Source: Chiloscyllium plagiosum | Lineage: Eukaryota | Direction: 5' to 3' | DNA: 50,000 nt | Assembly: GCF_004010195.1 (NCBI RefSeq) | Contig: NW_025214741.1 | Location: 1 to 50,000 of the forward strand | Part shown: one piece after another, positions 5,749-50,000 of the stretch | How positions within the stretch are numbered: position 1 is the first letter of the stretch | Layout of the letters: each line of letters begins with the position of its first letter | Position numbers and translations under genes: made by a program | Notes under the pieces: model-generated | The model's input: the letters and a program-made list of their open reading frames with translations, nothing else | Told to the model about the DNA's origin: nothing | The model's database searches: none

Positions 5749-6179
5749 CTTCAGGAGCACCATGAAAAATCAGTGTTAGCAGAGTTAGAATATTAGAACA
5801 GACAGACAGGGAATTGACCATAAACCAATAGTCTCAAGGAGCACTTCTTGTGAGTTCAACTCAGCATGCCTTTTAAGATAGCATCAGGTCCCAGTTGATG
5901 AATAAATTTAGTCTTTAATTGATTGTTCACCCATTTTTAAATTCTAAATCAACACTTTTCTCTCAAAGTGCCAAACACATTCAGTGGTCACTAACAACTC
6001 GTGAGCATTTATGTGGACAGTTACAAGTATATGTTGTTGTACACTTCCCTTAACCCTCCCCTAATCAGGGCTGACAAGGGGCTTCCACCACTTACTTTTG
6101 TGTGAGGCCAGGTATTAGGTCAATAAACATGATGCCACCCCTCCAAAATCAATTTAGTACCGAGGTTCAGGTTTACTAG

Positions 6180-6311
6180 ATTCTTCCTGAAGAAGGGCTA
6201 ATGCCCGAAACGTCGATTCTCCTGTTCCCTAGATGCTGCCTGACCTGCTGCGCTTTTCCAGCAACACATTTCCATCTCTGATCTCCAGCATCTGCAGACC
6301 TCACTTTCTCC
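6180..6311 (+). mobile_element. Short Penelope-derived element (family A) with hammerhead motif
   Basis: 13-bp TSD tcaggtttactag (6167-6179 / 6312-6324). The 3' end gcatctgcagacctcactttctcct matches the end of the GIY-YIG-encoding element at 26834. Confidence 0.8.
6185..6216 (+). ncRNA. Minimal type I hammerhead ribozyme motif (weak helix I)
   Basis: UC-CUGAAGA-A-GGGC UAAU GCCC-GAAA-CG-UC^-GA: intact core, 4-bp helix II, palindromic ACGU helix III, GUC cleavage triplet; helix I only 2 bp. Confidence 0.55.
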
Positions 6312-6638
6312 TCAGGTTTACTAGTGGCAGAGCATTAGAGCTATAGCAGACAGATTCAAGGCCCCAGCTATCTCAATCTCTGCAAACCTACAGAATTGCC
6401 CCAGTGGTGGGTTGGAGTTAAAATTACCCAGGATTTGTTCTGCTGATGTCACATTTAATCAAACAAGGTACTGAATCACATTCCCACTGAGGGGCACATA
6501 TCTCGACCCAGACAGGTAGAATGAGAAACAAGCAAGGCAAGACAGCAAGGCAAGCAAGCCAGGAGAAGCAGACAAGAGAAGACCGCTAATGAGACAGACA
6601 AGTGGACAGAGAGTGATCAGAATAGTTTCCACACTCAC

Positions 6639-9439: not shown

Positions 9440-9603
9440 GAAGTCACATGACACCAGGTTATCATCCAATGGACTTACTTGAAACAACAAGCTTTTGGAA
9501 CACTGCTCCTTTGGTACCTGACAAAGGGGCAGAGCTCCAAAAACTCGTCATTTCAAATAAACCTGTTAGTCAATACTCTATTCTCAGAAGTCACACGACA
9601 CCA
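9440..9603. mobile_element. Decayed head-to-head Penelope-derived element (family B-like) with mutated hammerhead
   Basis: Inverted halves ttgaaacaacaagcttttggaacactgctcctt / aaggggcagagctccaaaaactcgtcatttcaa; core remnant CTGACAAA at 9518; gaagtcaca(t/c)gacacca occurs at both ends. Confidence 0.55.
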
Positions 9604-9619
9604 AGTTTACAAGAACGGT

Positions 9620-11052: not shown

Positions 11053-14000
11053 CTGATGAGACGAACAAATTAGGACCATCAGGAGTAGGTATAACTCAGT
11101 CAAAGCAACATAGCACAGCTTCAATCTTTCACAAAGAAAAACAAATTCAGCTGGTCTGGCAGCATCTGTGGAGACAGAAACAGTCAACTGTGACCCTTCC
11201 TCAGATTTCTGTTTTTCTCTTCAAAGATTAGTCAGATCTGCCAAGTTCTCTTGAAACTTTTATTTATCGTTTGTCTGAGATCTCCAGCATCTGCAGTTTT
11301 GTTGTTTCATTTTAGTGTTAAATCTTTAACTGGGTACAAAATGTGAGAAAAAAAGCACGATACAGGAAGGACAAGAGAAAGGATGGAAAAAGAGGTAAAG
11401 ACTCTGAGAATGAGCAAGGGTGAAAGAATAAGAATAATAAAGGGATTAAAAGTAAAAGAGGCATTGAGACCAAAAGATTGAGAATAAAGATCTACAGTGG
11501 GAAGAAAAAGAGTAGCAGAGCTGAATAGGAAAAAGACACAAGGACAAGTAATTGAAAAAAACTTCAATGGTGAACAGGGACGGAGTTGTGAATCCACACA
11601 TTTATAAAACATTGCAAGTTGTGAAGATAAAAGTCAACTGCAGGCCACAGCCTGTAACTGAAAATCAGAATTTAAGAAACACTAGATGGCGACCACACTC
11701 CATTGGGAAGACTGGGCATTTATCCTCAAATTTTCTTCCCTTACGGGAATTGGTAGGGTGCAGAGTGAAGCCATTTGGCCAATTGTGTCTGCATCTTCAC
11801 ATCCATCTGCACAGATGACAGGATTGAGATGGAAAACCTGGCACAGATTTCTGAGCTTCTAAAGCTGGAGTCATTAACAATCATTTTGTGCTGCAGGACT
11901 TGCATATTGCTGAGAAAAAAAAAGATACATTTTCCAAAGTTTTTCATCAGGACAATTTGCAATAAATAGCAATGTAAAAGGAAATCAATTCTTTCGTTTC
12001 ATGCTGTTACTGTGCAGTAGCACTGAGTGGAGTGCGCCACTAACAGAATGTAGACATCAAGCTAATGAATTTCAGCATCATGGAGATATTAGGTACACCA
12101 CAAAGACTGGCAGATTACATTAAACAGCTTATTCCTACTGTTGTTTGCAACCAAAGTACCCAACCAGGCAATGCTTGCAAAACTCCCAATGAACAACATT
12201 TACTAAATAAAGTCTGTGCACACAAAAATCTACACTGATAAACAATTGGGAGATTGCTAGTCCCATTTGCAGTGTGGTACACTTTCACATACATAGCACC
12301 CTAACTTTTGCAGACAGAAAGAATGTGTACACACTGCATCCATTTCAACTCAAAACAGGTGACCGCTTATTCCCTGGTTCATTTCCCAGGGGAATGCCTT
12401 TAATGAGCATCAACCCGACTGTTTAAATTTAAGCAAGTTTGTCAATTAATGGTCAGTCATTATCTAGGAAAAAAAGCTTATTCACTGAACAGATTAATTA
12501 CTAAATGAATTAATAACATGTTAAAAACAAGAAAAAGGTGAATAAGATCAGCTTAAAAAACAGATTGGTCTCTAAAATTGTTCATAAAAAGAGATGATTG
12601 AACATAGCAGCTATTGTAGTGGCCATCTTATCGGTAGCACGGATGTTGACAGTTGATTTCAATATCCTTAGTTTTGCAGAATAGTTACAATTCTATAGGT
12701 CTGATTCCTTTTGACCATGACTGAATTCCATATGCAGGGTAAGGGAGAGTCAATTTATTGTCCTGTTTCCTTTAGTTTAAACTAGTTTGCGGCACCCAGA
12801 TATTAAACCTCCAACACAGGAGTGACTCAGGAGTAGATCTTAGACTGTAAAAAACACTCAAACCCAAGCTAGTACAGACAACATTCACTCCTACTAGTAC
12901 ACTCTAGTAGAGTTAAAACTGGTTTTCTTAGCCTTGTTCTTATGTTCTTCAAAAGGAACAACATTTCTGCAGTTTGAGACCTAATCCACAGGGGGATGGC
13001 TTGCTTTTGAGCACAGGATCATTAGCCCCTTTGATTACTTCTGACTACAAAGACAACATGTCCAGTCCATTTGAAGTTTCTAGCTATTGCATCCTATCAG
13101 TCCCACACAATTTTTCATATTTGCAGTTACTTGGTCTCTGTAGAAACAGAAACAGAAACAAAAAACACATTTTAGAACCAAGCGCTAAACATTCCAGTTT
13201 TACTTTGGGGTTCCAACCACCAACTGGCATTACATCATACAGAGAAACAGAATGTAAAGTGTTCATGGAACAACAGGAAAAGCAGTGCTTTCAGGGCGAA
13301 ATAGAGGGCAGAAAGCCAGCCAGGCCAAATAAAAATCCACACACCAACAGGGAGACTTAAAGAACCATCCCTGGGCTGCGACCCACAGGAATGAAGAATC
13401 AACATAGGAATCACTCCATTCCCCAGATATTTGGACTGAGAGGGTTGCCAGTGTCAATATCAATTGCTGCTGTCTGCTGGAACTACAGTAGACTCAGGCC
13501 TATTGCAGCTGCTTTATAGCCAGGCCAATAGTGTCGTATTCAGCTCTCAGAGGGACACTGTTACTTAGGCCACACAGCAACAAAATTACACAGGTAATCT
13601 CCCATCTAAATATCCACAGGTGCGCATACACATTGGTCTCACCCAAGGACATTCTTACGGGGCATAAAATGCCCCAGTTATCATACTCCAAACTAAGTAG
13701 AATTTACATATAGTGGACTTTTTAAAAAGAGATTTCAAAAAAAAGTGATCCACTTGCAGAAGAGATGGCTATCAGGTGGTGATCTTTTGTGGTTTCTATA
13801 CAGGAATGTTTAACTCAAAATTTTTAGGATCTATGGGATTTGAATTGATGTCTCAGGACACAAACCTGGAGTTCTGGACATCTACCTCAGTGACATGACC
13901 ACTACTGCACCACCCCCACCCCCCACCTCCCCCCTCCTAGGAGAGGTGTGTCTGTTTTGGCACTTACACTTTTGGGAATGTGTGTGAATAACGATCTTTT

Positions 14001-17290: not shown

Positions 17291-17428
17291 ATTTCCTTAA
17301 AAAAAAAAAGTCCTCATTGATGATGACATGACTGTTTCAAATATCTAAAACTGTCTCTCCCTTGGAGACAGATGTTTTGACTAACAGAGGGTTCAATTCT
17401 TACTCTGCACTGGTTTGAGGCCAAGGGA

Positions 17429-17565
17429 GTTGAAAGGAATTATCAGGAATGTGCTTTGGCAAGCTTATGCCCAAAACTTTGATTCTCCTACTCCTCAGAT
17501 GCTGCCTGACCTGCTGTGCTTTTCCAGCATCACACTTCTAATCTCCAGCCCTCACTTTCTCCTTA
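17429..17565 (+). mobile_element. Short Penelope-derived element (family A), hammerhead lost
   Basis: Body gatgctgcctgacctgctgtgcttttccagc...ctcactttctcct; flanking duplication aggccaaggga (17418-17428 / 17566-17576). Confidence 0.7.
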
Positions 17566-19789
17566 AGGCCAAGGGACCTGGGTTTGTATACCACCTTGGT
17601 GACACTGAAAAAAACCCAGGTAAAGTCAGAGGAGGAACAACCAGACAAAACACAACCCAACCCAAAACAGGTCCTCAACTGGCAGAAGATATTTGAGATA
17701 TAAAATCAACCTTTGCTGTCAGACACAAAGTACAGTTCACTTCACTGAAGGGGGGAAACTAAGCAGCGAATATGCAGAGTGCATTCTGGGAAAGTCTGCT
17801 CTTTTCCCTCCTAATGAATTCTGGGCCCTTAGCTTGAATTTACCAGCATCTTGAACCCACCATAACGCAAAGATGTTCCTGAAAACAATTTGTTGTTTCA
17901 AAAATGTAAATGAAGTAGCTGCACAGACTTCAATGAAGTTTTACAGGAAGCTGATTCTCACACTGCGCTAAATATGGGTTTTTTTTTTAAATCTCAGCCC
18001 ATATCTACAACCATCCCAGGAGCAGTGCTTTCAGAATGCAAAAATCACAATGTCAGTTCCAGCCATTGGTCAAGATCTATCAAAGGGCTGATCAGGCTCA
18101 ACGGCTAGATGGCTAAACTCTGCTCCCAAGTTTAGGGCAGATGACAAACTGAAAGAGGGGGCATAAAAAGGCTTAGATTTATAAAATGCAGGATACCTCA
18201 AAAGATCTTTTCCAAAAAAAAAACTGAAAGAAGCCCAGAGGCAAGTGGCTGATTAGAGTCATACAAAATACTTATTTAACTAATTAAAATGTATTTTAAG
18301 GACAAATTAATGTCACAAAAATGATAAAAAGGTTCACTATATATTTTTTCCTCTTTCATGAAGTTGATGAACCGTAAAATATTCTTTGGCTTTACAACAT
18401 TGTAAACACATGTTTTTCATCCTTTCAAAGCATTTAGGTCGGGGTTTCTTTTGATGCACCGTACAAGACTGGATAAGAACCTCTATCTAACACAGTCTAG
18501 GAAGTTTGGCCAGAACCTGCTGGAGACATCACTGGCTACCAGAGGTATCCAGGTGTACCTGCTCTTGTTGCTCTAGCACTATATAAAGGAAAACAGATAG
18601 TTTCAAAAAGGGCCATAAAGGCCTTAAAAACTGAAGCAAATTAATTTACTTCACCCATGGCAGAGCCGAAATGATCACAGTTCCAGTCTAATGGCCGGCA
18701 TGGAGATGTTACTGCACAGAGTTGGATGGAGGAAGGGTTTGCAATCCAAAGCACTGAAAAAGACCTGGAATGCTGCATACAGAATCACAAAGACTCAAAC
18801 AGACGCAGACGTATCCTTGCCTTGTTCTGGCGTGATAGTTGACTCTTCAAAAATCAAGTCACAACACAGAAGATAAATTGCCACCAATGAGCTCTTTCAT
18901 AATTTAAGAGAAACGGCATCAGAAATCCCACTTTATATGTTATCTTCTCGGGGTTGTACCACTGGCAGGCCAGTTACAGCAAGTGAAGGAATTTAAGAAT
19001 TCGAAATTAATTGTAATTGTCATGTGTACTCATAGGGATACTGGAATAGTGAAGAGTGTACAAAGTTGCCACTCGGAGCACCATTTTAGCTACAAGGTAG
19101 TTAACTACAAAAAGAAAAAATTAAGTACATTATTGACTTTGAACTTAGCTTTACAGTTCTTCTCGATATAAAGTGAGGGGAAGATTCCCCAACAGCTGTT
19201 CACTCAAAGCTTTACTGGAGACTAAGATCCTGAAAATATTGAAGATTCAAACCAGCAATATGGGATTGTAGCTTAGAAACCAATAATGCTACCAACTGAT
19301 TCAACTAAAACACGAAATTGCATATTTATCTTCATGCAATATTTAATGTTCCTTTTAATACCATTACTGGAAAAAAAACTGTAAATCAACATTCCAATGA
19401 GAATTCAGAGTATTGTTTTATTCTTCAGAGAATGTCTTTGAGAAGTCAAAACCAGAATTCCATTTGGTTAGAACTAAGTAAAATAAAATAAAATGAGCCA
19501 TTGCATTACTTGGTACATTTTATAAGCCACCAAATAGCAGGAGAAACAGAGGAAAGCAAAAGATAAGGAGTTGCTTAAGGTGTGCAAAAACTACAAGTTC
19601 ATAGCAAAAGACTTCAACTAACGCAATACTGAATTTAGTTTCCTGACAGAAAAAGTGAAGAAGAATTTCAGAAGTGTGTGCCCAGTGGCAAAGAAGTTAT
19701 TATATGTAGCCCTGGGAAATGAAAGGAGTCAAGTGTAAAATGTCAGTTGGCAGCACATTGAAAATATAATGTTCATAACATCAAATTTT

Positions 19790-21496: not shown

Positions 21497-21877
21497 TCTG
21501 CTCAGTGGTTAGTATTACTGCCTCAGGTTCAATTCTCACCTCATTCGACATTCTCCCTGTGACTGCATGGGTTTCCTCCCACAAACCAAAAGATGTGCAG
21601 GTCAGGTGAACTGGCTACGTTAAATTGCCCATAGTGGAAATAAGCTTTATTCCTAATGAAGGGCTTTTGCCTGAAACGTCGATTTTACTGCTCCTCGGAT
21701 GCTGCCTGAACTGCTGTGCTTTTCCAGCACCACTAACCCAGAATCTACAGTCATTGTCTTTACCTAAATTGCCCATAGTATTAGGTGTAATAGTCAGGGG
21801 TAAGTATAGGGTAGGGGAATGGGTCTGGGTGGGTTACTCTTCCGAGGGTCAGTGTAGACTTGTTGGGAATCTAATTA
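21497..21877 (+). mobile_element. Degenerate V-SINE interrupted by a Penelope-derived insertion
   Basis: Head gctcagtggttagtattactgcctcaggttcaattc, V-domain remnant, then tail sequence resuming after a duplicated taaattgcccatagt. Confidence 0.75.
21636..21764 (+). mobile_element. Short Penelope-derived element nested in a V-SINE
   Basis: 15-bp TSD taaattgcccatagt (21621-21635 / 21765-21779); mutated hammerhead CTAATGAAGGGCTTTTGCCTGAAACGTC. Confidence 0.78.
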
Positions 21878-26833: not shown

Positions 26834-28020
26834 AGGAGAAAGTGAGGACTGCAGATGCTGAAGATCAGAGTCGAGAGTGGAGTAGGAGATAGGTCAGAGT
26901 GGGGAGTGATGTGAAGGTCCAGAGGATGGTGCCGAGTTGGAGACTTGGCTCTGGCATAACGTGGAGGGAGGGGAAATGAGGAAGCTGTTGAAATGCACAT
27001 TTATCCCGTGCGGTTGCAGGATCCCAAGGTGCAATGAGGCGTTCCTCCTCCAGGCGTCAGGTGGTAATGGTTTGGCAATGGAGGTGGCCCAGGACCTGGA
27101 CGTCCTTGATGGAGTGGGAGGGGGAGTTGAAGTGTTCAGCCAGCCACAGGGCGATGGGATTGGTGGGTGCAGGTGTCCCAGAGATGTTCTCTGAAACAAT
27201 CCGCAAGAAGGCTTCCTGTCTCCCCAATGTAGAGGAGACCACACCGAGTGCAACGGATGCAGTAAATGACATTGGTAGATGAACAGGTAAACTTTTGATG
27301 GATGTGGAAGGATCCATTGGGGCCTTGGATAGAGGTGAGGGGAGTGGTGTGGGCACAGGTTTTACACTTCCTGCATTGGCAGGGAGTGGTGCCAAGAGTT
27401 GGGTGTGGGCCTGACGAGGGAGTCGTGGAGGGAATGGTCTTTTCAGAACGCCGATGAGGTGGGGAGGGAAATATCTCTCTGGTGGTGGGGCCCATTTGCA
27501 GGTGGAGGAAGTGGTGGAGGATGATGCATGGTATGCAGAGGTTGGCGGGGTGGAAGGCAAAGACCAGGGTAGTTCTGTCCTTGTTGCATTGGGAGGGGTG
27601 GGGTTCAAGGGCGGTGGTGCTTGAAGCCAGCGTCAACCAACTGGGAAGAGAAGTTACGATCATGGAAGGAGGCAGCCATCTGGAATGGTCACCTGTTCCT
27701 CTGCTACATCAATGACTGTATTAGCACCGCCTCATGCTCCCACAAGGAGGATGAACAGTTCATCAACTTTACCAACACCTTCCTCCCTGACCTCAAATTC
27801 ACCTGGACCATCTCGGAAACCTCCCTCCCCTCCCTGGACCTCTCCATCATCATCTCTGGCAACTGACTAACCACAAACATATCACAAGCCCACTGACTCC
27901 CACAACTACTTAGACTACACCTCCACCCACCCTACCTCCTGTAGGAAATGCCATCCCTTATTCCCAATTTCTCTGGCTCCACCGTATCTGTTCCCAGGAT
28001 GACCAATTCCACCTCAAAAG
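26834..28020. mobile_element. Decayed Penelope-like retroelement (Neptune-type): GIY-YIG part on minus (26834-~27625), RT fragment inverted on plus (~27685-28020)
   Basis: Minus ORF 27136-27663 has CQCRKCKTC...FTCSSTNVIYCIRCTRCGLLYIGETG...FREH (Cys knuckle plus GIY-YIG). The plus frame has LFLCYINDC...FTNTFLPDLKFTW...LPSLDL (decayed YIDD region). Stops and frameshifts are present. Confidence 0.85.
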
Positions 28021-28039
28021 TCAGCTAATTAGTACTCTC

Positions 28040-29455
28040 GTATCCTGGTGGCTAGCTCCCTACCTGTCTGTCCAATGTAAATGTTTGTTGCAGTTCTTGC
28101 CACTCCACCCACTCAACCTAGGAATTCCTCAAAGACACCAAGGTAGAATATGACAAGTTTCCTTCAATGTGACGGCTCTACTCATACCAATAAACATCAC
28201 CCTGACCATAGAAACACTGGCCTCAGTTTGAGACAAACCAGGGATACAAACACCTGACACCACCAACTCCAATCAGCACGAACAGCATCCTCAAACTATT
28301 AGACCTGTGCCTCACAACCCACTTCCATACAAATCAATGGAACACCTATGGGATCACCAATATCAGGACTATTAGCAGAAGCAGTTATGCAGAGGTTAGA
28401 ACGAACAACCCTTCCCATAATCCAGCCCAAGCTTTGAGTCCACTATGTGGATGACACCTTTGTCATCACAAAACGCAATAAATTTGAAGAAACCCACAAA
28501 ACAACAACATCCTTACCAGTATAAAGTTCACCAAAACAGGGAGAGAATAATAGACTCCCCTTCCTAGACCTCACAGTAGAACGAAAAACCAATGGACAGC
28601 TGCAGACCAGCATTTACAGGAAAGCCACACACACACACTGACTAGATACTCAACTACAGGAGCAACCATCCCAACACCCACAAACAGAGCTGCATCAGGA
28701 TGTTATTTAAATGGGGCACAATACACTGCAGCGCCCAGGAACTACGAGAAGCGAGGGGAAAACTCCTATACAACTTATTCAGGAACAAGTACCCATTAAG
28801 CGCAGTCTGCCAATTCCTACATAGACCTAAACATACAACGACGACATGCCCAAAGACTCTCGCCACCCTGCCATACAAAGACATTTCAGAGATGACGACC
28901 AGTCTACTCCAGCCCCTAGACATCATGGTTAGCCCACAAACCTACCACCACACAAACAGCTCCTGATGACTTTAAAAGGACCCCCTTACCAACAACCAGC
29001 AGAATGAACGTCATGTATAAAAAAATACCCCGCAAGGACTGCAATAAACATTACATTGGACAGACAGCAGGAAACTAGCCACCAGGATACACGAGCACCA
29101 AATAGTCACCAAAAGACATGACCAACTAGCACTAGTACCCACACAAACGAAGAGGGACACCAGTTCAACTGGGACAATACATCCATCCTAGGACAGGCTA
29201 AACAAAGGCACGCACGGGAATTCCTAGAGGCCTAGCATTCAAACCGGAACTCCATTAACAAACAGGTTTGGACCCCATTTACAAACCTCAGAAACAGAAC
29301 AGAAAATGATATCACCTACCACAACAAGCCGAGACAGAAATAGCAAGCAAGACAGAACACCAACACTTCAGAGGCTCACTGATAATATTACCTAGCATGG
29401 TGACAAAATATCAGAGAACAAATCTACTAGCTCAGAAAGCAAAACTTTACAACCT
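28040..29455 (+). mobile_element. Decayed Penelope-like retroelement (Poseidon-type), RT plus GIY-YIG plus 3' repeat
   Basis: QINGTPMGSPISGLLAEAVMQRLE (from about 28330), HYVDDTF (28441), LPFLDL, CNKHYIGQT and LATRIHEH (about 29040-29100). Multiple stops and frameshifts. Degenerate hammerhead at about 29376-29415 (CTGATAA...ttacc/ggtga...AAAATATC). Confidence 0.85.
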
Positions 29456-33340: not shown

Positions 33341-33853
33341 AGGAACTTTTGTTGTCTGCCCATATTCTGTTTTTACTGAAGTCAGGAGACAGATTTCATG
33401 GGTGAGTCAGAGAATTCAGTATAGTATAACTAAAATGGGTGTTTGTCCACTGGTAGAGTGGAGTGTTTTGGTCTACAATGGAATTTTCATGCGATACATG
33501 CTCAGCGAAAACAGCAAATGGAAGCTATTATTTACATATTTCATTTTTAAACCTCACTTTAAAAGTCAAGAATACATTGTACAATGATGTGCAAGATGTG
33601 ACAACTGAAGTTCTTATCTCGAGGCCCTGAAATATCAGCCTTTGTAGTGAACTTGGGGCAGGATACATTTTCCTTTTTTAATTAATCAACAAAACACAGG
33701 AGGTAAGCAAATTATAATTAAAAGTTTTATTTTCTTTCTATACTCAAGTTCATTTAATAAACTCAAATTATTAAGACAGCCAGCTTCTAGATTTCTCAAT
33801 TTGAAATGTTTTATAAATTTAAAATCCCAAAACCTTCAACATGCATATAATTA

Positions 33854-34035
33854 AAAATCACACAACATCAGGTTATAGTCCAACAGATTTAATTGGAAGC
33901 ACTCTAGCTTTCGGAGCGATGCTCCTTCATCACCTGATGAAGGAGCATCTCTCCGAAAGCTAGTGTGCTTCCAATTAAACCTGTTGGACTATTTTTAACT
34001 TTGTACACCCCAGTCCAACACCGGCATCTCCGAAT
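33854..34035. mobile_element. Head-to-head inverted Penelope-derived element (family B)
   Basis: 14-bp TSD catgcatataatta (33840-33853 / 34036-34049); 58-nt inverted arms 33875-33932 / 33935-33992. Confidence 0.82.
33931..33965 (+). ncRNA. Minimal type I hammerhead ribozyme motif
   Basis: CAC-CUGAUGA-A-GGAG CAUCU CUCC-GAAA-GC-UA^-GUG: helix I CAC/GUG, helix II 4 bp, palindromic AGCU helix III. Confidence 0.62.
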
Positions 34036-34965
34036 CATGCATATAATTAGTATTGTCTTACTTTCTCAATTTGAAAAGAAACTAGAAAGAAAAACTAAAC
34101 AATGTTTTTGAAATAGATTTTACTGGAAAGCAGTGAAAATTAATGTATGCAGGGTTTCTCTATTGCAATGGTCATGTATTTTTTATTTTGTGCTTCATGG
34201 TTGTAGACAAAATTAGAAAGTATTGTTAAAGAAGTGTTTTAAGGAATTGCAGCATATTTTGAAAAGTAACCTGACACTTATGGCAGGCACTGGATTTGTA
34301 CAGCTATTTGAACAAGCAGCAATTGAAGAGGACTCAACTGTGACCATTGCAGCCGCGATGGGAAGATGTTAATTGACCTATGGACTAGTGATCACTTATT
34401 GATACAATGTTCTTTTGCCTGCCAACAGCTATGTAATTGCTTTCAGGTAACTAAATGGCTTGGGACTGGGAACTTGTCACCTGCCAGCTCAGAAATGGAG
34501 TTGGTTCTCTGTCGTCAAAGCTTACCTTAAACCTGAAGAAAACCAATTTCTTTCCTCCTGCAGTTGCTGCAAGTTATGACTTCTAGTTAATAAATCATAA
34601 TTTTACAAGTTGAACAAATCAACATGTCTCAAAAAAAAAAAAAATCAGTGAAAGCATTCAGAAAAGGAAAGCCAGGAAGAAACTTTCAGACCAGCGTGAC
34701 AGAATTTGTGGACAACAACGATTGAACTCTTTCCAGTTTCCCCTCAATTCCATCCATCTTTTTTCCTGTCTGTACATCTGACCTGTATGAGGAGTTTAAA
34801 AAGGGAATAAAGAGGTGCATTCCAACAGTTTAACTGTTTACTTGTAGCTACAATCTAATTACTTTTAATAAACGGTAATTCTTGTTCAGTACAGAAACCT
34901 GGGCCATGCTTCCTATCAAACTGGGTCTAAAAAAAAATCAGAAATTGAAGCACTTAATGTAACGA

Positions 34966-35214
34966 CTGTGTTGAGTTTGCACGTTCTCCCAGTGTCTGTG
35001 GGGGTTTCCTCCGGGTGCTCCAGTTTCCTCCCACAGTCCAAAAATGTGCAGGTTAGGTGAATTGGCCATGATAAATTGCCCATAATGTGAGGTGAAGGGG
35101 TAAATGTAGGAGAATGGGTCTGGGTGGGTTGCGCTTCGGTGGGTCGCGCTTCGGTGGGTCGGTGCGGACTTATTGGGCCGAAGGGCCTGTTTCCACACTA
35201 ACTAATCTAACCTA
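34966..35214 (+). mobile_element. 5'-truncated V-SINE (HE1-like) with an internal 15-nt tandem duplication
   Basis: Near-identical to the 4796-5117 copy in opposite orientation; ggtgggt(t/c)gcgcttc is repeated at about 35123-35152. Confidence 0.85.
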
Positions 35215-37230
35215 ATGTACTTATTTTGAAAGTTTTTACTTCTGTGGCAAATTCAGGAACAACAGGTCTTGATTTCTTGCACATAGCCACACTGACTCAT
35301 GACACTAATCTGTCACAACTGAAGTGCATGAGCCATGGAAATGCTGGCAAAACAGCATCGGCATAGACAAGACCCCTCCCCCCACAGGAATCCCACCCTA
35401 CCCTTAATGCTGCAGTCGCTGAAGAGTGTACATTATACAAATGCTCAAACAGATTAATAGTATTCCTTCTCTCGGCAAATGTATAAATCCTATGATTTTG
35501 AAAGAAAGAGACTCAAAAAGTAGAACCTTCAATGAAGACATTTTAAAAACGACAAATTTAAATCCATTGCAATAACATTTCAATATTTTAATTATTTGAT
35601 GTTTAAAATATTTGACATTTGAAATCAGCAATTTAAGATAATTTAAATGATGCAAAAAAGTCACTTTATGTTTCTCAAACTGTTTAATTGCTAATAGCTG
35701 ATAAAATTACAGTTATACAGTTATACAAAGTTCAAAATTATGACAAAGTATGGCTTCTGAAGTTAAAATTTTGTGTAAATCAAAGTTAGACTACATTTTA
35801 TCTTCAGTTTTTACCCAGCTTCCTCAAACACCATCCCTCACTCTAAAAGGTTCTGCTGAGCTGCAGTTAACTAACTCTGGTACTTCAACCAGACTTTGTC
35901 AGCTTTCACATCTGTAAATGATCAGGGGTCAAACATTGACATCTGCCTGATCAGAAACAGACCCCAACTGAAGTCAGCAGCTTTTGCAGACAGCGTAAGT
36001 TGGACAACAATGCTAAGAGATCTTACTGAGCAACACTGTTTCCACCCAGTGGTCCACCATTCACCACCTCTCCTCTACAACCAATTACATTCCAACTGCA
36101 CACCAGGCTGTGTTCTCCCAGTTCCTGAGGCTATACAACTGTGCCAGTAAAAGCAGGAGATTGAACAAAGTTGCACAAATTCTATTGTAATTACACACAC
36201 AAAAAGGAAATTACATTTGTATAGCATCTTAAAGTGGCTGGTAGGCCAATTAAAATTTCAAATCATAGTAACTGATGTAGAAAACATGGAAGCTAACTTG
36301 CACACAAAACACCCACAAGCAACAGAGGTAGGACAAAACACTTTGGGGAAGACATTCAGCTCCAGTTTTTGAACTGAAATTGAGGCTGCTACAAAAAGGG
36401 ATTTTTAAAAAAATAAGTTCAGCTACTAGCACTACCAGAAAAACAACAGCTTTTCAGCTGGATTTCCATGGGTCTGGCTGTGTCTCTGTGGGTTTGTTTC
36501 AAAAACAGTTTGTCTGCACTGCAGAGCACAAACTGGAGTTTGGCAGTAACAACTACAGTTAGTGTGGTTAAAGTGTGTAGGTGGTGAACAGGCCGACTTG
36601 GGACAAATTGCCCAAATTCAGTCCCAGTGCTCAAGTAGCAAATAACTCACTCATGCAAAATCGACAGCAAAGTCACAGACAAAGACTTGCACTCCCAAAT
36701 ATCCTCCCATCCGGGACTAAACATTGCCAAATAACATCTAAAATTCCTAAACTCCACTAAACAGTCAAAAACCCTGTGCCAATAAACTCCTAAATATCCC
36801 CAATTCACTAAAAATTAAAATTCCCTCACATGAAATCTAACTCTCACTCTCCATCCACTAACACTGAATTACCTCAGGTATTATCTATTCTCCAATTATG
36901 TTCAAACTTTGCCCATGGCTATTGCAAGAGAGTTCCCACCACCGTACCCGCCTCCCCCCACCCCCCCAAAACCCCAGTGAATCTAGACAAACAGATCAGG
37001 ATTTTCAGATCCCATTTAGTTTGGAACCAGATCAAGCCTGAAAAATGAGGCAGCCAAGCAATTAGGCTCATTAATAGCCATGTTAAATGGTAACTTTAGG
37101 AGGCTGACTCAATAGCATGCACCAAAAGACCACACTGTAGAGACGACCCAATTCTACCACATCTGTGGTTTTCTTGATGTAGCCTACATCGTAGCCGCAA
37201 GAAAACTGCCTTATTGTAACAGTCTCAGTT

Positions 37231-37550
37231 CATAGAATCCCTACACAGTGAGGAAAAAGACCCTTTGGCCCAAGAAGTCCACACCGACCCTCTGAAGAGT
37301 AACTCACCCATTCCCCTATATTTACCTCCGACTAATGCATCTAACCTACACATCCACGAACACTATGGGCGACTTAGCATAGCCAATTCACCAAACCTGC
37401 ACATCTTTGATTATGGGAGGAAACCAGACCACCTGGAGGAAACCCACACAGACACAGGGAGAATGTCCATACTGCATACACAAAGTTGTCACAGTCTGGA
37501 ATCGAACCTGGGTCCCTGGCCCTGTGAGGCAGCAGAGCTAACAACTGAGC
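37231..37550 (-). mobile_element. V-SINE copy (related subfamily)
   Basis: Same V-domain (aaacccacacagacacagggagaatg on +) and B-box (gaatcgaacc on +); tail catagaatccctaca. Confidence 0.8.
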
Positions 37551-40500
37551 GAGGTACTCCTCTGAAGCGGAGATGGTTCCCGGTTGATTATTCAGCTTTC
37601 ATAGCCCGTCCATTGCCCTTATTTGGACTGGTCTCCTTGCCAATTGAGGGGTCACCTCAAATTCCCAGTGGGTAACTACTTACTCCCTATACAACCACAT
37701 GGGGGAAAACAACTCCCCTAGCCCCACTCCAAAAGCAATTCAGCCTGACACTGAGGGCTAGAAGAATGACAAAGCTATGTTGCCCAGTGAATATTTCACT
37801 GGGCCATTAGGTGGTGAATGGCCCGTCCCCCCAAAAAAGCACTGTAGCTCAACTATAAGCTTTACCCTATTTAACTCTAGCCAACAGCACAGGCTGCTCA
37901 GATTCAGACACACAAGCCCACATAACTCGACACTATAACCAAACAATGTGTTTACTCAGTAAATTAATCAGGACTGCAGTGAAAGTGAGCTTAACTTGTT
38001 GACAGACATATCACTGTGTATTATTCTCAATGTGCACACAATTCACTCCCTCATCTTCTGATAATCAGCCAAAGCATATATAAAAAAATAAGAAAAAGCC
38101 ATCCACACGACAGTCACTGACCGGAGTGCAGAGCTGTATTAATGCAGCATCAGCTCACTGTTATTCCAAGAGCCAGTCGATTCCCCTGCAATTCCTCCAG
38201 TGACGTGTTTGTTGAACTTGGCTCTCACTAAAAAGAGTGAGCACTTGCACAGCCTGCTCCTCATTTCAAAGTTACTGAGAGATCTGTGATTTTGAACTGT
38301 TTGAGTGGATTCATCTGTGCAGACTGGCAGAATGGAACCACACTTCCTCTTCCAAATCCCCAAACCACATGCAAAAATAACATTGGGCGCAGAGTCAGGA
38401 ATTTGTCTTTGAAATTGCAAACCCTTCAAAAATAAAGGAAGAGAAAAAAACCTTGCATTTCCAAAGTCACATCTTTCAGATAGATGTCAACCTCGCTTAT
38501 AAAAATGGGTGTTCGTGCACCATTACTGCAATCATGGATGCTCACAGTTAGGCCACCTTCAACTTTATCTTGAATCCAGATAATCTCTGCACTTTTAAGC
38601 GCACCACCTCATGTTCAGTCCTACCAGAACTAGGACCTTACTCAGTACCAGTCATGTGCAGGCTGAGAGGCAGTGAGCTCCAAAACTTTTCATCGCTGAT
38701 GACTCAGTTTAGAACGTGATTTTATCTTGACCCAGCATCAGCACACACTGCAACCAGTTAAGAGTCATTTCATAGCGAATTATTACCATAAACTGGACAG
38801 TCTGTTGGTTAAATAACTATTTCCCAAAGAAAGTTTTGGGTCTTGAATTCAATAAAATTTGGTCTTTTGCAGGTTATCATGACACAGGAAAGCTGAAAGA
38901 CTGCAATTTTAAAAAGTTAATCTTTTGCTTGGTCTTTACAATAACTCCAGTGATTAACTTTTAATACCCTCTATGGTCTAACAACCATCAACCATTAGCT
39001 TCATACAGCCACATCCCAGTCGTGTCTGTATTAAAAAAAATCAGGAGCGAGACATGAATAATCCTCCCTCTCCTTAGATCAATCCTTAGCATTGTCACAA
39101 GCCTTTTACGTACTATAAAAATATTTACATGGAAAGATTTACAATTCTCCAATTTTCCCCTCAGTTTAATAACTTTTCACTAATTTCAATAAGTTTAAGG
39201 ATGTTCTGAATTGCCAAATACTCAAAACATTAGGGGTTAGAAGCTCAAATTAAAAAAAAAGTGCATTATGTACTAAAGTTAATCATTATTTGATACTTGG
39301 GCCAGTACAATGACTGTACATAGATGCTATCAGCACAAGTGTCCAAAGTTGTTTAGTACATTTCCAAAGAAATGTACTAAAGTTGATTAGATACTGTGGC
39401 ATTGTAGCCCACGTCAAACAATCAACATTTGGAGCCAAGGAATTGTACATTCAAAGTGGGACCAGATGGACCTTTTGTCCTTAGGATTGTATCAGAAGGA
39501 CAAAGAGGAGAATAATCACCTTCAACCTCCCACAGCATACTAACTAAGCAACCTATGGTCTGTGCTACAAGGACAAAGGCAATATTATCGTACTAAAAAT
39601 GCTGCAATTCAGAAAATTAAACCTTTGGGAAATAGGGTGCCTTAATAATGTTTAGAACAGACAATTGAGGGAGATAGATTGTGTGTTTGACATATTTTTC
39701 TCCCTTGGTTTCCACTTAAAAGATTCTTACTATGATGGGGCATAATGCCAGAGGTCATTCTTCATCCGAGAGTCTGGACAGCTCTTCCCTTCTTGGAGGA
39801 TCACAGTCAAGGTCCAATTTGCACTGTCTTGCCATTCACTTCATTACACTGTACAATGCAGACCAATATATAATGATCAGAAGTAGGAACAATAACTGAC
39901 ACTTCATTCTGGAAAGGCATTGGTTAACTTGCACATCAATAATTGTCCCAGCATGCCAAAGAATCAAGCCCTATTCCAGAGAATTGAGCACGTCAGGTAC
40001 TGAGGGATTATTGTTTCAATGGTACAGTATGCTAGAGTGCAATCTGTTGTCTGAGGTTAAAAAATTCCAGGGCAATACTTGAACAAGGGTAGAGCAGTTT
40101 TCCTGATGTTTTGGCTAATATTTAACCTCAACGAACATCTTTACAAACAACGTGTCTGTCTCTGGTGTGAGAAAGAACCTTTATGGCCATATTCAAAGAC
40201 ACCTTTCTATATGTGAAAACCAGTCGAGATATCCCAGGCAAGTGAAAAGGACTATTTTAGAGCAATATTTTTCCTTTACATGGTGGGATATAGAATTAAG
40301 TCCAATCTGTAAAGCATTCCCAAATCAAAGTACTGACTGGTCTGAGGTTTTGTTTAATAACCCCAGGAACATACCTCAGTCTTAACCCCACAAAAAGGGT
40401 CATCCCATTTTGTCCACTTCACATACCAATTATCCCATTCTCTCTAACTCAAACTGATGGTTTATTGTGGTCTGGGTTCAAATCAGTTAAGTCACACCAT

Positions 40501-43607: not shown

Positions 43608-44104
43608 TTATAAAATCCCTACAGTGCAGAAACAGGATATTTGTGCCATCAAGTCCACACTGACCCTCTGAACAGTATCTCAGCCAGGAGAAAATGTGAG
43701 GTCTGCAGATGCTGGAAATCAGTCGAGAGTATATTGCTGAAAAAGCACAGCAGGTCAGACAGCATCCGAGGAGCAGGAGAATCGACGTTTCAGGCCAGAG
43801 TCTGATTCCTGATGAAGGGGTCTAGCCTGAAACATCTATTCTCCTGCTCCACAGTATCCCACCCAGGCCCACCCCTCTACCCTATCCCATCGTGAAATCA
43901 ACCTAACTTACACATTCCTGGACACTATGGGCAATTTAGCATATCCAATCCACCTAACCTGCACATCTTTGGTCTGTGGGAGGAAACCCACACAGACACA
44001 GGGAGAATATGCAAACTCCACACAGTCCCCCACAGCTGGAATTGAACTCTGGTATCTGATGCTGTGAGGAAGTACAGCTAACCACTGAGCCAATGTGCCA
44101 CCCC
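43608..44104 (-). mobile_element. V-SINE copy interrupted by a Penelope-derived insertion (about 43686-43850)
   Basis: Head gctaaccactgagccaatgtgccacccc on +, V-domain, and tail aaaatccctacagtg; the tail is split by a degenerate duplication acagtatc(t/c)ca(g/c)cc. Confidence 0.78.
43686..43850. mobile_element. Inverted-duplicated Penelope-derived element (family A) nested in a V-SINE
   Basis: A minus-oriented body (aggagaaaatgtgaggtctgcagatgctgg...) is joined to the plus-oriented ttcctgatgaaggggtctagcctgaaacatctattctcctgctcc; degenerate TSD. Confidence 0.72.
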
Positions 44105-44879
44105 AAATATTGTTTTATGTATGAACTGCTACTACCAAGCTACTATCACAGGGAGTGTCCACCTCCCTTATTCTTCTTGGGTTTAGAGACCCTGTCAGGA
44201 CAGTTGGAACATATGTGATAGCATTTACACATCACACACCTACCTCACACATAGCAATATAATAATCAGAGCTGATACCAGCATAAAATACTGCCAATGG
44301 GTTTTAATAAGCACCAGTAAACAAAAAACAAAATCTCTTCCAGGTAATGTTTCAGCCATGACTCTGTTGATAGATTTCTTAGCACTGAGTCAGGAAGTCA
44401 AGGATTCAAGTCCCACTCCAGAGTTGTAATCTCAATAAACTCCCAAGCCAAACTGCCCAGCATCAAGGCAGCAATTACACAAGTTCAGTTTGATTGAGCA
44501 GGATACTTCAATTCTATGCCTGATACCAGACATCCAAAACAATTGCTTTACTCAATACAGAGTCACTGAAGGAGCCTCCAGGAAGGACAGCAGGAATGCT
44601 TTAAGGATATCATCAAATTTTCTCTGAAAACATCTCCACCAACTCATGACATTCCCTAGCCTGTGACTAACTAAAATGAAGAAAACCCATATGAAGAGCT
44701 GTATCAAGAACACACAAACCTCCCAACAACTCATCTGCCTGACCCTTCAAATGCCATCTCCCCAGGCATGTGACTGAGTCTGCAGACCATACAATAAACT
44801 AATCAACCAGCTGAACTCAATGAATCAGAATTCAAACAAGTTCATCCTTGATCCAAAGGGACTGCCAAAAAGCAAGAAA

Positions 44880-45160: not shown

Positions 45161-47291
45161 ATATTACCCACAAACAATATCAAGAGGGGTCTAATTTGCT
45201 TCAATTCTATCCTCTTTTTGTCATCTAACTTTACCTTACATGAATCTAATACTTGCAGCTGCATTGACCAGTCAGAAATTTAATTTCCAATGTTAATCAC
45301 AATATAAAATTCTTCAATACATTTGACAAACTGTCCTGTGACCAGTTTTACTTTACCAGTCCCTAATTCCAGTCAATTATCTAACCTTATCCACACTGAT
45401 CCACCTTGTGACCTTTGTGGAAAATATCTCATTTACAGAAAAAAGGTGCCATCCAATGCAGGATCCAATTTAATGACATAAATTAGAAAAAAGGACTGAA
45501 CATAGAACAGATCCTTTGAGCATTCCCAGAAACTTGGATATACAAAATTAAGATTACCATGATCTTCCAGCAAAGTAATTCAATATCTTTCGCAATTCAA
45601 TTGTCCTGCATTCTGTACGGTCTGGATAGAAGGACATAGTAAAACTACCAGCTCACAGGCCTTCTCCATTAGCGCAAATCACCAACCTGATTCTCAAGTG
45701 TGCAAACTGGTTGTTGTCTTTGGACAGGATAAGGCCTGCCCATAAAAGCTCAGCCTCTGGCACTCTCCATTTCTACAAATTACAATCTGTGAGTGAAATT
45801 TGATGCACACATACAGAGAAGAAGGCAATTCCCTTAATCCTGGACCTTGACAGTATGTTGCGATTAATTTGATCAAATCCAAAAAGCAAAAACAAACTGG
45901 ATCGCTGTGAAGTGAGTGTCAGTAACTCCTCCCAGACAGCACTGTCTTACTCACCACACCTCCGATGAGTCTAATCCAGTTTCGTCACATTGTCAGGCTT
46001 AATAAATACTCCCATATTACTGATGGTATCACTATTGATATTACTTCAATTACTTTGCAGTGTTGCATTTGTCATAATTCTTTACAATAAAGGCTTTGAG
46101 ACTTCATTTGCTCATTGAATCATTTGGTGTGGTGCTGAACCACACAGACCAACAAGTATCAAATTCAGTTGTTGGTGTTCAGTTTGCTGATCTTAGCAGT
46201 CAAAGTATTACACTTAGCTTCAGAGCCTTAGGCTGACAATAAGAGTTGGATAGGATTCCTGCTTCTCCAATCGTTTCTGCAAGAAAGTGAATCTCTAAGG
46301 GCACCCCAAGCCCAGGTTCCCCAAAATTGAATTAATTGTAGCACATGGTATTCAGATTCACACAACCCACTTTTGGAAACTCCTAGGAGACAATGTCTTC
46401 TGAAGTGGATGGGAGAAAATTAATCAGGTGAAGTGAGGTTTTTGGGAGACTGGTTACTGCAATCAGGAGCAAAGGCTGAACAACTCAAAAAAAAAGCGGA
46501 GTAAACCTATAGATAGTTTACAAATAATGTATATTTCTGAAATTTAAAAGAATGTAAATGCATCATAGTCAGGTTCAATTTTCAAAGGTCATGCATACTT
46601 TTCAAAGGGGTATGTGCATCCTGGTCAGCAGAGGATCCCAAACTGACTGCTTTCCTTACTTGCCCAGGTGTTTAAAGTCAATTGTGGAACCACTGCCATT
46701 GCAATGAACAAAATCAGCACGGATGATGAAGTGACTTTTTATTCTGTGGAGCAGTTCATTTACTAAACCATCAAGAGCTCTCCTTTCAGTTGTTCACCAT
46801 AAGAGAGACACCCATTCCGGGTAAAGGTGTTAAGAGAGCCTGACACAAATGTGATAAAGAATTTCATTAAAAATACTTTGAACAAACTTAATCACCGCAT
46901 ACAGACTTGCAACATCACCCAGACAGTTGCCAGAAGTCACTGAGTGCAATGATAGAATTCTAGATCATGATAACCAAGATAATTATTGTAAGTTACAGTA
47001 TAAAGCTGGACTATCCGATAATGTACCGCACCTAAAACTGATGCAAATTTAATCCCTCTCCTACTGTAATGCAGGAATAACATAGAGAGTGGGTTTTAAC
47101 CAGTACAAAGCTTTGTACTCACAGAGTAATAGTGCCTCAAAATAAATATTGAAGGGCTATTGTGAGAACAAAATAAGACAAAGTAAATGAGCTATGGTGA
47201 AAGATTGGACAAACCTAAATGATACAAGATTAAAGAAAAGAGAGGAACTATCTCTATCTCTAAAGCGAGGAACTATCACTATATCACTTCA

Positions 47292-47483
47292 TGAGTTGGA
47301 GATGCCGGTGTTGGACTGGGGTGTAATAATTTCAGTTACATCACACTGTAAACTTTTGCTATAAATTCTGTGTCTTACAATTGTGTCCTCCACAACCACC
47401 TGATGAAGGAGCAGTGCTCCGAAAGCTAGTGCTTCCAATTAAACTTGTTGGACTATAACCTGGTGTTGTGTGATTTTTAACTT
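47292..47483 (+). mobile_element. Penelope-derived element (family B) with an inverted 3' piece at its 5' side
   Basis: 12-bp TSD tatatcacttca (47280-47291 / 47484-47495). The first ~33 nt are the reverse complement of the family end tacaccccagtccaacaccggcatctcc seen at 34004-34031. Confidence 0.82.
47397..47431 (+). ncRNA. Minimal type I hammerhead ribozyme motif (best-preserved copy)
   Basis: CAC-CUGAUGA-A-GGAGC AGU GCUCC-GAAA-GC-UA^-GUG: complete core, 5-bp helix II, 3-bp helix I, palindromic helix III. Confidence 0.7.
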
Positions 47484-48543
47484 TATATCACTTCAAAGTG
47501 ATTAAAATCAAAATGTGTACATTTAGATTAGGAAGAACAGTTTAAAATAGACAGTTTAAATGTAAATATCCTGGTATTTCCAACATAACAGCACATCACC
47601 ACATAGACTGAAGCAGTTCAACAATTCAGTTCAACGCTGTTTTCAAGGGCATTTAGGCATGCACTTTAAATGCAGGTCTGATAGTGAATAAATGAACAAA
47701 TAAAAACTTTAAACAGCAAAATACTGCAGATGCTGGAGACCTTATCTAAAAACATAAAGTCCTCAAGAAGTACACTATGTAAGACAACATCTGTGGAGGG
47801 AGGAATGAAGTTAATGTGTCAAGTCAATGTGACTTGTAAAGGCCCTCACTACTTTTGTTTTTCTTATTTCTTTTGGTTTGCAACTGTGAGATGTGCTTAA
47901 GAGTTGAACTTGGAATAACAGCTTGTTCTAAAAATGAGAACAAAGACAGATGTTGGCTGTTGGCAACTGGCCTTAATCAACTTAATTACTGTTTTAAGGA
48001 CACTTAGAGAAATCAGTACTGAGCTGTTTCAGTGCTCAGGCCTGGCAGCTGGTTGGATCTTGAAGAAGGGAGAACCGGCACTAACAAAGCAACCACCGAA
48101 ATCTTTTTTCTGATTAAATTTCTGATGAAAGATCATCAGCCTGAAGTATTATTTCTCGCTCCACAGATCCTGCCAATTGACTGGCTGTATTTCTAACATC
48201 TTCCAAGTCTAGTCAAAATTCCCAACATCTTCAGTACATTCACATTCATGATTGATGCAAAGATTAAAAGTATGCAGTGCTAAATGATCTTATAAAGATG
48301 AAAGTAAGGTCAGTTTGTTATCATTGAGGCTGGTTTGCTTGAAAGTTCTTTTCAGGAGGAAAAAGGATTGAGACCATGAAGCCAAATTTCCGTATTTATG
48401 ATGGCTTCTGTAGTCAAATAGCTTAAGGCTTCTCCCGTGAGTAAGCAGAGCTGAACAGGTTCTGAAAGAAAATTAAGGAATCTTTACTTCACGTTGAGGA
48501 TAGTGTGCTTTGTGGCCTTTGGTGGGGTCGTGCAGTAGTCTAG

Positions 48544-48774
48544 AGCTGAAAATGTGTTGCTGGAAAAGCACAGCAGGTCAGGCAGCATCCAAGGAACAGG
48601 AGAATTGACATTTCGGGCATGAGCCCTTCTTCAGGAAAGAAGAAGGGCTGAAGAAGGGCTCATGCCCGAAACGTCGCTTCTCCTGTTCCTTGGATGCTGC
48701 CTGACCTGCTGTGCTTTTCCAGCAACACATTTTCAGCTCTGATCTACAGCATCTGCAGTCCTCACTTTCTCCTA
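48544..48774. mobile_element. Head-to-head inverted Penelope-derived element (family A) forming a 93-bp hairpin
   Basis: 14-bp TSD gtgcagtagtctag (48530-48543 / 48775-48788); arms 48542-48634 / 48648-48740 with 3 mismatches; CUGAAGA...GAAA cores on both strands. Confidence 0.85.
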
Positions 48775-50000
48775 GTGCAGTAGTCTAGTTTGCCTTCTTC
48801 CATCTCTCTGTTGAGAATCTGCTTAGATGGTCTCTTCTTGGAATTCTGAAGAAGTGGTCTCTCACAGCCTGTCTTATCACAATCAAAGCAAGAAGGCTAC
48901 CACATTAACAATGATGAGTCATTGTATGACAAAGGTAAGTCAATAATGATGAAATTCCTTATGGTGTCCTTCCAGTGTCCTGCTTTCCCAGGAGCTTTGA
49001 AATCTCACACCTCCAGGAGGACCAATTGGGTTGTCCAGAGTTAATCAAATTCTAAATGTGTTCCTTTGTGATTGATGCTGAGATAATATATCAGTCTGAC
49101 TGTTTCATTGGCTGTATCAACAAAGGCAGTAATGTGACTTCAGGATCCACATTACAGGTTTCTGTGTAAATTATTACAGATTAACCTAGTTTACAAGTTA
49201 TGTATTAAAGTTACACAGTCATGATACTTGCCAGAGTGCTGATGACAATAATTGCTGTACTACTAACATTGCCCCTCATTGGAATTGAGATAACTCAACA
49301 CTGACTAGGAATCAAATCTAGATCCATTTGATCAACACAGTTCAATATCAAATCAGTGATTCCCTCTAATTAAATGACCATTGGTGAACAGAAACAGCAG
49401 TGAAAGCGCAGGAATTAAAAAAACTCAAATACTGATAACTTAAGTTGTGTTCATAGCATTTAGAATGTGGCAATTATCAGATTACATTTCTCCTTCAAAG
49501 TTAATCTTTCATGATCTTATATTTACTTAGACCTTACACTTCATAGTAATAGTCAGAACACAAAGGACTCTGAATAAGGTTTCTATTTGCAAGGGAACAG
49601 ATTAGGATATCTGAAAAGAACTTGCAGTCCACTGTATATGATGTTTATATTGGTTGCAGGCCAAAGCTCAGTGAATGATAGAGAGCTAACTCATTTGTTT
49701 GAATAAGGACAATTCAGCATTGGCCAAGGTGAACTTGGGGCAGTTTGTCTATTGTGAACAGCAACTGCTCAACTTCAGTGGAAGTAAATATATACTCCCA
49801 TAATTTATATATATATATATACTTTTTTGTATCTTTTCCACTCATCCAGTGATAGAGTTCAGAAGCCAGGGAACTGGTTCCAAACCTCTTCCATCCTTTG
49901 CAAGACCACAAAACTACATTGCTGCTACCCTACTGTTCAAATTACACCACAAGCTACTCAGGGTATATTTCCCCGAATAATCAAATAAGTGAACATTGCA

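Follow-up and report, generated by a model that had tools for sequence, protein, structure and literature searches.

A 50,000-nt stretch of Chiloscyllium plagiosum DNA, referred to here as the window, carries at 47.3 kb a short, repeat-flanked insertion with a hammerhead ribozyme motif. This raises the questions of what kind of element left the insertion behind, by which route it entered the site and whether its ribozyme acts at this locus. The first-pass annotation had read it as an intact minimal hammerhead carried by a non-autonomous Penelope mini-element.

The hammerhead motif and its relatives

On the plus strand positions 47397-47431 read CAC-CUGAUGA-A-GGAGC(AGU)GCUCC-GAAA-GC-UA^GUG, in which the core CUGANGA / GAAA / UH is complete, the G10.1-C11.1 pair is provided by G47408-C47420, A47407 is the extra nucleotide between 9 and 10.1, and the palindrome AGCU is the remnant of helix III (Table 1). 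Helix I consists of 3 bp followed by a C-C mismatch and another 2 bp. The motif first described for this site is borne out letter by letter, i.e. core, extra A, 5-bp helix II, 3-bp helix I and AGCU, and the word "intact" holds for it as a motif sequence. An extra base between 9 and 10.1, G10.1-C11.1 and a palindromic 15/16 are features of the minimal hammerheads (min-HHRs) known from fish Xena, Poseidon and Neptune elements, from coelacanth and from Xenopus (Cervera and De la Pena 2014, PMC4209133). With its type I core, extra nucleotide, palindrome and short helix I the shark motif resembles the min-HHRs of metazoan EN+ Penelope-like elements (PLEs), and it is unlike the Schistosoma min-HHRs in having a helix II of 5 bp instead of 7-8 bp (PMC4209133).

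A strict descriptor, requiring the core together with at least 3 bp each in helix II and helix I, matches the window at three sites (33934, 47400 and 48648), helix III being palindromic at two of these, compared to a mean of 0.005 sites in 200 dinucleotide shuffles. The loose core pattern without helix constraints is weak, with 13 matches versus 6.3 expected. Rfam returned no hammerhead match at the gathering score or at E<=10, the two rows present at E<=10 being unrelated chance matches, so that of the model and descriptor searches suggested beforehand the descriptor gave a positive and Rfam a negative answer. A chance hammerhead likeness within an unrelated repeat could draw on this Rfam result, on the monomer fold with a z-score of only -1.0 and on the chance-like appearance of 3 of the 8 metagenome pattern matches presented below. 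We regard it as close to negligible in view of the palindromic match being found in 0 of the 200 shuffles, of compensatory changes in helices that the search pattern had left free, and of the position of the motif downstream of PLE endonuclease sequence in relatives.

These relatives were obtained with a degenerate pattern, which retrieved 8 metagenome loci; five of them keep helix I and represent ~3 families, L002 and L005 having one hammerhead sequence and L001 and L003 being close to each other. The GC-rich loci L006-L008, being devoid of helix I, were dropped as chance. Covariation was counted only at positions free in the search pattern and concerns ~3 independent outside families, i.e. 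small numbers. Helix I varies between CAC/GUG (window; 5 bp in L002/L005), CUC/GAG (L004, 5 bp) and UAU/AUA (L001/L003, 4 bp), pair 3 of helix II occurs in the three variants A-U, G-U and C-G, and the palindrome AGCU of family 1, to which the 47.3-kb copy belongs, is swapped for ACGU in family 2 of the window. The covariation that the first-pass annotation had named as a check is thus seen for helices I and II across these relatives. Pattern scans, including a stricter version, gave 0 matches in viral contigs and prokaryote genomes, and the exact shark 3'-end pattern gave 0 matches in metagenomes.

Penelope-like RT or endonuclease sequence is present in 3 of the 5 hammerhead loci, all from marine metagenomes, and was found in neither L001 nor L003. 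The L005 hammerhead, identical to that of the window at 33 of 35 positions, lies ~780 nt past a PLE endonuclease domain (E about 1e-36), the L004 hammerhead lies ~210 nt past an endonuclease C-terminus (E 4e-4 and 1e-3) with a similar pLTR and tail downstream, and L002 has an inverted RT alongside its hammerhead. The endonuclease identity in L005 and L004 comes from tblastn to two RT-bearing proteins; Pfam recognised neither the L005 endonuclease nor the L004 fragment. These loci suggest that such hammerheads sit at the 3' end of coding PLEs, a placement taken from the marine relatives rather than from shark family 1. In L004 (520-1000) the Penelope-like 3' end stands between prokaryotic or phage-like frames, a chimeric contig being probable. 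L003 (2025-2065, minus strand) and L001 (1120-1160, minus strand) show the same minimal hammerhead in a dispersed ~150-nt eukaryote repeat, and L003 also has a 1135-aa frame that we take to be kinesin-like.

By the sequence tests the 47.3-kb hammerhead belongs with the PLE minimal hammerheads, a class described in 2014 (PMC4209133). It adds a shark example to this class, which carries little weight alone. No shark example is present in the text and searchable supplement covered of PMC4209133, and no shark Penelope hammerhead was found in the literature searched, which takes in few of the subscription journals; an example may already be in print.

The insert, its family and the coding copies

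An exact 12-nt direct repeat at 47280-47291 and 47484-47495 encloses 192 nt, and a repeat of at least 12 nt at the same spacing occurred in 1 of 2000 random placements, which agrees with the insertion of ~190 nt and the 12-bp repeat claimed before. The repeat, 75% AT, is a TSD by inference, because no empty site is present among the joints listed (15 of 300). The left 34-36 nt of the insert (47290/2-47325) are the reverse complement of the end of the 33.9-kb copy (34/36 identical) and the remainder, 47326-47483, is a sense arm; in other copies this tail stands in sense orientation behind the main 3' end.

Table 1. Coordinates of the insert, of its hammerhead motif and of related features (window positions unless a metagenome locus is named).
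Feature	Position	Strand	Remark
Left copy of 12-nt putative TSD	47280..47291	.	last 2 nt also match tail end of element
Inverted element tail, AC-rich, 34-36 nt	47292..47325	-	34/36 identical to 34004-34039
5'-truncated pLTR (PLE 3' end), to main 3' terminus	47326..47483	+	loose ends both sides
Right copy of 12-nt putative TSD	47484..47495	.	first T also equals next element base
Minimal type I hammerhead	47397..47431	+	sequence and descriptor match
Hammerhead helix I	47397-99/47429-31	+	3 bp
Hammerhead core	47400-06	+	CUGAUGA
Extra A of hammerhead	47407	+	between 9 and 10.1
Hammerhead helix II	47408-12/47416-20	+	5 bp, 3-nt loop
Hammerhead GAAA	47421-24	+	
Helix III palindrome AGCU	47424-27	+	
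Predicted cut	after A47428	+	
Segment predicted to pair with tail, enclosing main 3' terminus	47447..47455	+	weak prediction
Predicted post-ribozyme/tail stem, both families and L004	33982-34020, 6231-6297, 48692-48758; L004 933-990		
Family-1 fold-back, centred on hammerhead 5' edge	33840..34049	.	tail on sense arm, 14-nt TSD
Family-1-related old decayed fold-back	9441..9600	.	core broken, no clear TSD
Family-2 short copy, minimal hammerhead and tail	6167..6324	+	13-nt TSD
Family-2 fold-back, two hammerhead cores head to head	48530..48788	.	tail on one arm, 14-nt TSD
Family-2 fold-back, decayed	43672..43858	.	8-nt TSD
Family-2-type short copy	21621..21779	+	one core change, 15-nt TSD
Family-2-type decayed copy	17418..17576	+	11-nt TSD
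Broken coding copy: family-2 tail, GIY-YIG region (-), inverted RT fragment (+)	26834..28010	-	
Decayed hammerhead-like stretch, end of 28-29.4 kb element	29376-29425	+	

Of 24 runs listed, three of DNA and one of RNA (X22) were aligned to 47100-47700 at 85% likeness, the RNA run placing 0 reads, which does not bear on expression. Per DNA run, 67,000-79,000 contigs were placed, almost all on the insert, at a flank depth of ~8-12, so that family 1 is very abundant, the summed contig depth not being a copy number and some joints being uncounted. With depth not being a count, family 1 seems far more numerous in the shark than the 4,000-9,000 copies quoted in PMC4209133. Upstream of 47326, 162-192 contigs per run extend into common sequence with an agreement of 0.68-0.73, read for ~20-30 nt. 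At the other end ~500 contigs per listed position of 47481-47483 break off into heterogeneous, unrelated AT-rich DNA, and 1485, 1445 and 1369 contigs in the three runs proceed after 47484 into the tail in sense orientation. These continuations and loose ends suggest 47326 being a truncation point, 47481-47484 the common 3' terminus and the tail an optional extension; the main 3' terminus at 47483 would correspond to RT start site 1.

Depth over the hammerhead exceeds the upstream plateau 3.3-fold in all three runs, a ratio confounded by subfamily divergence at 47373-47396. This suggests that most copies are short, which would fit a self-amplifying short element too. Across the cut site depth shifts only 1.1-1.2-fold and shows no step, so the cleaved RNA seems not to be the main template. 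The G12 change G47421A is found in 15-19% and C47420T in 21-24% of family depth, a loss of G12 and its CpG partner as expected if dispersed copies undergo CpG decay neutrally. All core positions other than G12 remain below the 3% listing threshold across the shark family and, because the 3' arm is mostly as quiet at its non-CpG positions, we read the quiet core as youth rather than selection. The 47.3-kb copy has 2 listed differences from the family majority in 47397-47483. A 2-nt insertion variant just past 47428 makes up 4.7-5.7% of depth in runs X1 and X9 and 0.1% in X14, X9 and X14 sharing an organism label despite this difference.

The window contains 8 short loci, three of family 1 (9.5, 33.9 and 47.3 kb) and five of family 2 (6.2, 17.5, 21.6, 43.7 and 48.6 kb), besides coding elements at 26.8-28.0 and 28.0-29.4 kb, which matches the first-pass count of at least eight copies from two short families plus a longer element. 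TSDs of 8-15 nt flank seven of the 8 loci, the exception being that at 9.5 kb, where none is clear; the TSDs of the copies other than that at 47.3 kb are 36-79% AT. The three family-1 loci show three different architectures. The palindrome ACGU is intact in 3 of 5 family-2 arms and broken by one transition in the other 2; the 6.2-kb hammerhead combines it with a 4-bp helix II and a 2-bp helix I. No tandem array of the unit was found in the window, 0 of 4 TRF rows matching it. A dispersed repeat of ~250-300 nt, presumably SINE-like, recurs at 4797-5117, 21500-21870, 34964-35219, 37232-37550 and 43850-44103, and copies of it surround or adjoin two of the family-2 inserts (21.6 and 43.7 kb).

In the broken coding copy the family-2 tail (26834-26870) is physically joined to GIY-YIG/RT sequence. 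This 26.8-28.0 kb element (window 27136-27708) and L005 both have a cysteine-rich linker, which when located between RT and EN marks the Neptune/Nematis type (Craig et al. 2021, bioRxiv 2021.04.23.441226), and the mobiliser likely has a cysteine-rich RT-EN linker of this type, as in these two elements. The second RT/GIY-YIG element, at 28.0-29.4 kb, is decayed and Poseidon-looking; no cysteine-rich linker was found in it across three frames, the hammerhead-like stretch at its end differs in type from both short families, helix II being extended and positions 8 and 12 of the core being changed from G to A, and the element is probably not the partner. Its GIY-YIG part is duplicated in inverted orientation at its left end (28025-28100, 29032-29105).

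Our main reading, to which we assign a probability of about three in four, is that the motif is a standard minimal type I hammerhead in the pLTR of a very high-copy EN+ PLE, probably of the Neptune type, the coding links coming from the marine-metagenome relatives. The 192-nt insert is in all likelihood a 5'-truncated pLTR plus an inverted tail, i.e. a dead-on-arrival fragment and no separate element. The Penelope kinship proposed before stands in so far as a PLE minimal type I hammerhead lies in a TSD-flanked retro-insertion; the separate non-autonomous family of ~190 nt is not supported, and as a discrete mini-element the insert fails on the family extending past both ends of the sense arm and on three layouts in three loci. 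The solitary, truncated state also resembles the PLE min-HHRs of PMC4209133, which are mostly single dispersed motifs from truncated PLEs. The parent of family 1 is possibly a longer non-coding element.

A short ribozyme-bearing non-autonomous family with its own transcription, mobilised in trans by Penelope RT/EN in a retrozyme- or SINE-like manner, appears rather improbable. It would account for the depth lying mostly between hammerhead and 3' end, 3.3-fold over upstream, and for every family-1 locus of the window being short; trans-mobilisation of other sequences by pLTRs can occur (Arkhipova et al. 2013, PMC3846280), and animal retrozymes are pLTR-derived. The insert shares with non-LTR retrozymes a short, non-coding, low-GC and pLTR-derived sequence with a type I hammerhead as well as larger TSDs (Cervera and De la Pena 2020, PMC7229834; bioRxiv 2026.07.22.740005), and one chondrichthyan is among the retrozyme-positive species (Li, Clavereau and Pollet 2026, bioRxiv 2026.07.22.740005). 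Retrozymes, however, are tandem arrays with mostly canonical ribozymes and circular RNAs, whereas the shark copy is solo and truncated and has a minimal motif and an inverted tail. A helix I of about 6 bp with loop-loop contacts, as in canonical retrozyme ribozymes, is absent at 47.3 kb, and the window shows no tandem units. The common continuation beyond 47326, the differing architectures of the three family-1 loci and the joining of the family-2 tail to coding sequence likewise argue against a short family of its own.

Two arms and two proposed priming sites

L1 twin priming leaves an inverted and a truncated arm between TSDs, the two being adjacent on the template. The 47.3-kb insert resembles it in the adjacency of inverted and truncated arms on the template and differs in having no poly(A) and in that both primers would start at fixed internal pLTR sites. 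On the uninterrupted element, with the 33.9-kb copy as reference, the sense arm ends one base short of the start of the inverted tail, and at each outer junction 1-2 nt are common to insert and target. These abutting arms and shared junction bases are most simply read as one RNA primed twice, once per site.

Canonical PLE insertions show 5' truncation, an inverted pLTR, a one-ended tail of 30-40 bp and a TSD of 8-10 bp (PMC3846280; bioRxiv 2021.04.23.441226), a layout likewise given in Schostak et al. 2008. The insert has the truncated arm, the inverted arm, the one-ended tail and the flanking repeat in common with these and differs in that the inverted arm is the tail alone, abutting the 3' end of the sense arm on the template, and in its 12-nt TSD. 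In biochemical work a PLE protein introduces nicks into the two strands of AT-rich DNA and extends them, synthesis beginning at two adjacent internal sites (PMC11167929). In the Anolis Poseidon PAc two adjacent 3' termini follow the hammerhead at a distance of ~75-115 nt (Frangieh et al. 2024, PMC11167929), which resembles the shark family, as do 3' termini delimiting an AC-rich tail, an AT-rich target and no sign of cut RNA as the main template (PMC11167929). Differences are that the PAc hammerhead overlaps the ORF start (PMC11167929) and that the shark parent is likely to have a cysteine-rich linker.

In the model proposed for this copy, the RT/GIY-YIG protein of the element would place nicks 12 nt apart in the two strands of an AT-rich site. 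From one nick cDNA would be primed at the main 3' terminus, which would extend for 158 nt and stop; the other would prime at the tail end and copy the tail alone. Joining of both cDNAs would yield the inverted tail and the truncated sense arm between TSDs. The model is drawn from one copy. The same element could have acquired its inverted tail by self-priming on the antisense template or by endonuclease resolution, which we consider a doubtful yet tenable route. Junction palindromes have been read as self-priming (Arkhipova et al. 2013, PMC3846280), the tail has been ascribed to EN-mediated resolution (Craig et al. 2021, bioRxiv 2021.04.23.441226), and the fold-back arms at 33.9 and 48.6 kb overlap, which a single pass over one pLTR cannot give, so that these copies need two passes over a pLTR. 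At 47.3 kb, by contrast, the arms abut at a one-base gap without overlap and the junctions share 1-2 nt with the target, and in vitro the extension of both strands begins at two adjacent sites bounding the tail (Frangieh et al. 2024, PMC11167929), which speaks against these routes at this copy.

A broader proposal is put forward tentatively, with the odds against it: priming on each nicked strand would occur at either of two fixed start sites, tail-only inversions such as that at 47.3 kb would result where one RNA is primed at both, the short copies would mostly be run-off cDNAs from the pLTR copy lying upstream in the transcript, and the ribozyme would stay uncut in the template. By eye, the 5' edge or fold-back centre lies within ~10 nt of C3 in 5 of the 7 other short loci, the exceptions being the 21.6-kb copy, which starts at -17, and the 17.5-kb copy, which is too decayed. 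If the run-off reading is true, a transcript 5' end at the 5' edge of the ribozyme rather than at the cut site would explain both this pattern and the 3.3-fold depth over the ribozyme, the ribozyme marking the RNA start; the "mini-elements" would then arise as an inherent by-product of an autonomous element, and shark genomes would preserve a record of PLE insertion numbering perhaps tens of thousands of copies, or more. The fold-back centres or 5' edges at 33920-33947, 48620-48660, 9500-9530, 43790-43815 and 6180-6190 cluster where the core begins on its 5' side, away from the cut site.

The role of the hammerhead in EN+ PLEs has been stated to be unclear (Craig et al. 2021, bioRxiv 2021.04.23.441226), and the steps after priming as not yet validated (Frangieh et al. 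2024, PMC11167929). In a family that is young, very abundant and readable at its junctions, both points could be addressed by counts of 5' ends relative to core and cut site and of the relation of the two arms on the template. The residual interest of the locus lies in its two arms abutting at a one-base gap, as if one RNA had been primed at both RT starts.

Folding, cleavage and the host gene

In the fold of the monomer only helix II is reliable. A double hammerhead formed via AGCU reaches -17.7 kcal/mol versus -31.4 for the dimer MFE, which pairs the helix II strands between molecules in an inactive form; these energies omit tertiary contacts. In the parent RNA helix III could not close alone, so that the RNA would be cut only as an AGCU dimer or with the assistance of protein. 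Published min-HHRs show weak cleavage, restricted to dimers or to constructs given an engineered helix III (Cervera and De la Pena 2014, PMC4209133), and the Anolis hammerhead needs the element protein and is dispensable for insertion (Frangieh et al. 2024, PMC11167929). Cleavage by the shark hammerhead would be slow and would belong to a step not needed for insertion.

A stem between the post-ribozyme segment and the tail is predicted in 5 of 8 MFE folds (33.9, 6.2, 48.7 and 43.7 kb and L004), L005 having a different long stem and L001/L003 none. None of the stem z-scores is below -1.6, those of 33960-34039 and L004 being only -1.2 and -0.6, and this stem may serve as a weak lead only.

Minus-strand exons of the window are 99-100% identical to Chiloscyllium Rab-3A exchange factor (RAB3IL1-like) proteins, which identifies the host as a bamboo shark. 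The coding exons span 3586 to 11057, alternative first exons lie at 38154-38264 and 44243-44359, and the first 51 residues of other RAB3IL1-like isoforms were not found within the window. This exon map and the missing 51 residues place the hammerhead upstream of the RAB3IL1-like gene or in its first intron, in antisense orientation. The single 47.3-kb hammerhead, antisense to the host gene, is most likely silent. That it is functional, matters to the host and cleaves a transcript made from this locus is very improbable. Core, G10.1-C11.1 and palindrome are all intact here, with G12, the hammerhead general base according to a review, lost in 15-19% of family depth, and the left junction is also covered by runs that bear the label of a second organism, reaching 22 nt into the insert and falling short of the bridging rule. 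The copy is, however, single and without helix III, lies antisense to the gene and has its nearest same-strand family-1 core 13.5 kb away, folded into a hairpin; with 2 listed differences from the family majority its intactness needs no selection, and a single min-HHR failed to cleave in vitro (Cervera and De la Pena 2014, PMC4209133). The hammerhead arms lying sense to the host gene, at 33899-33939 and 48601-48640 (both minus strand), are too few for a reading in terms of selection; both are damaged, the types of damage being a core cut by the junction and a broken helix I and palindrome.
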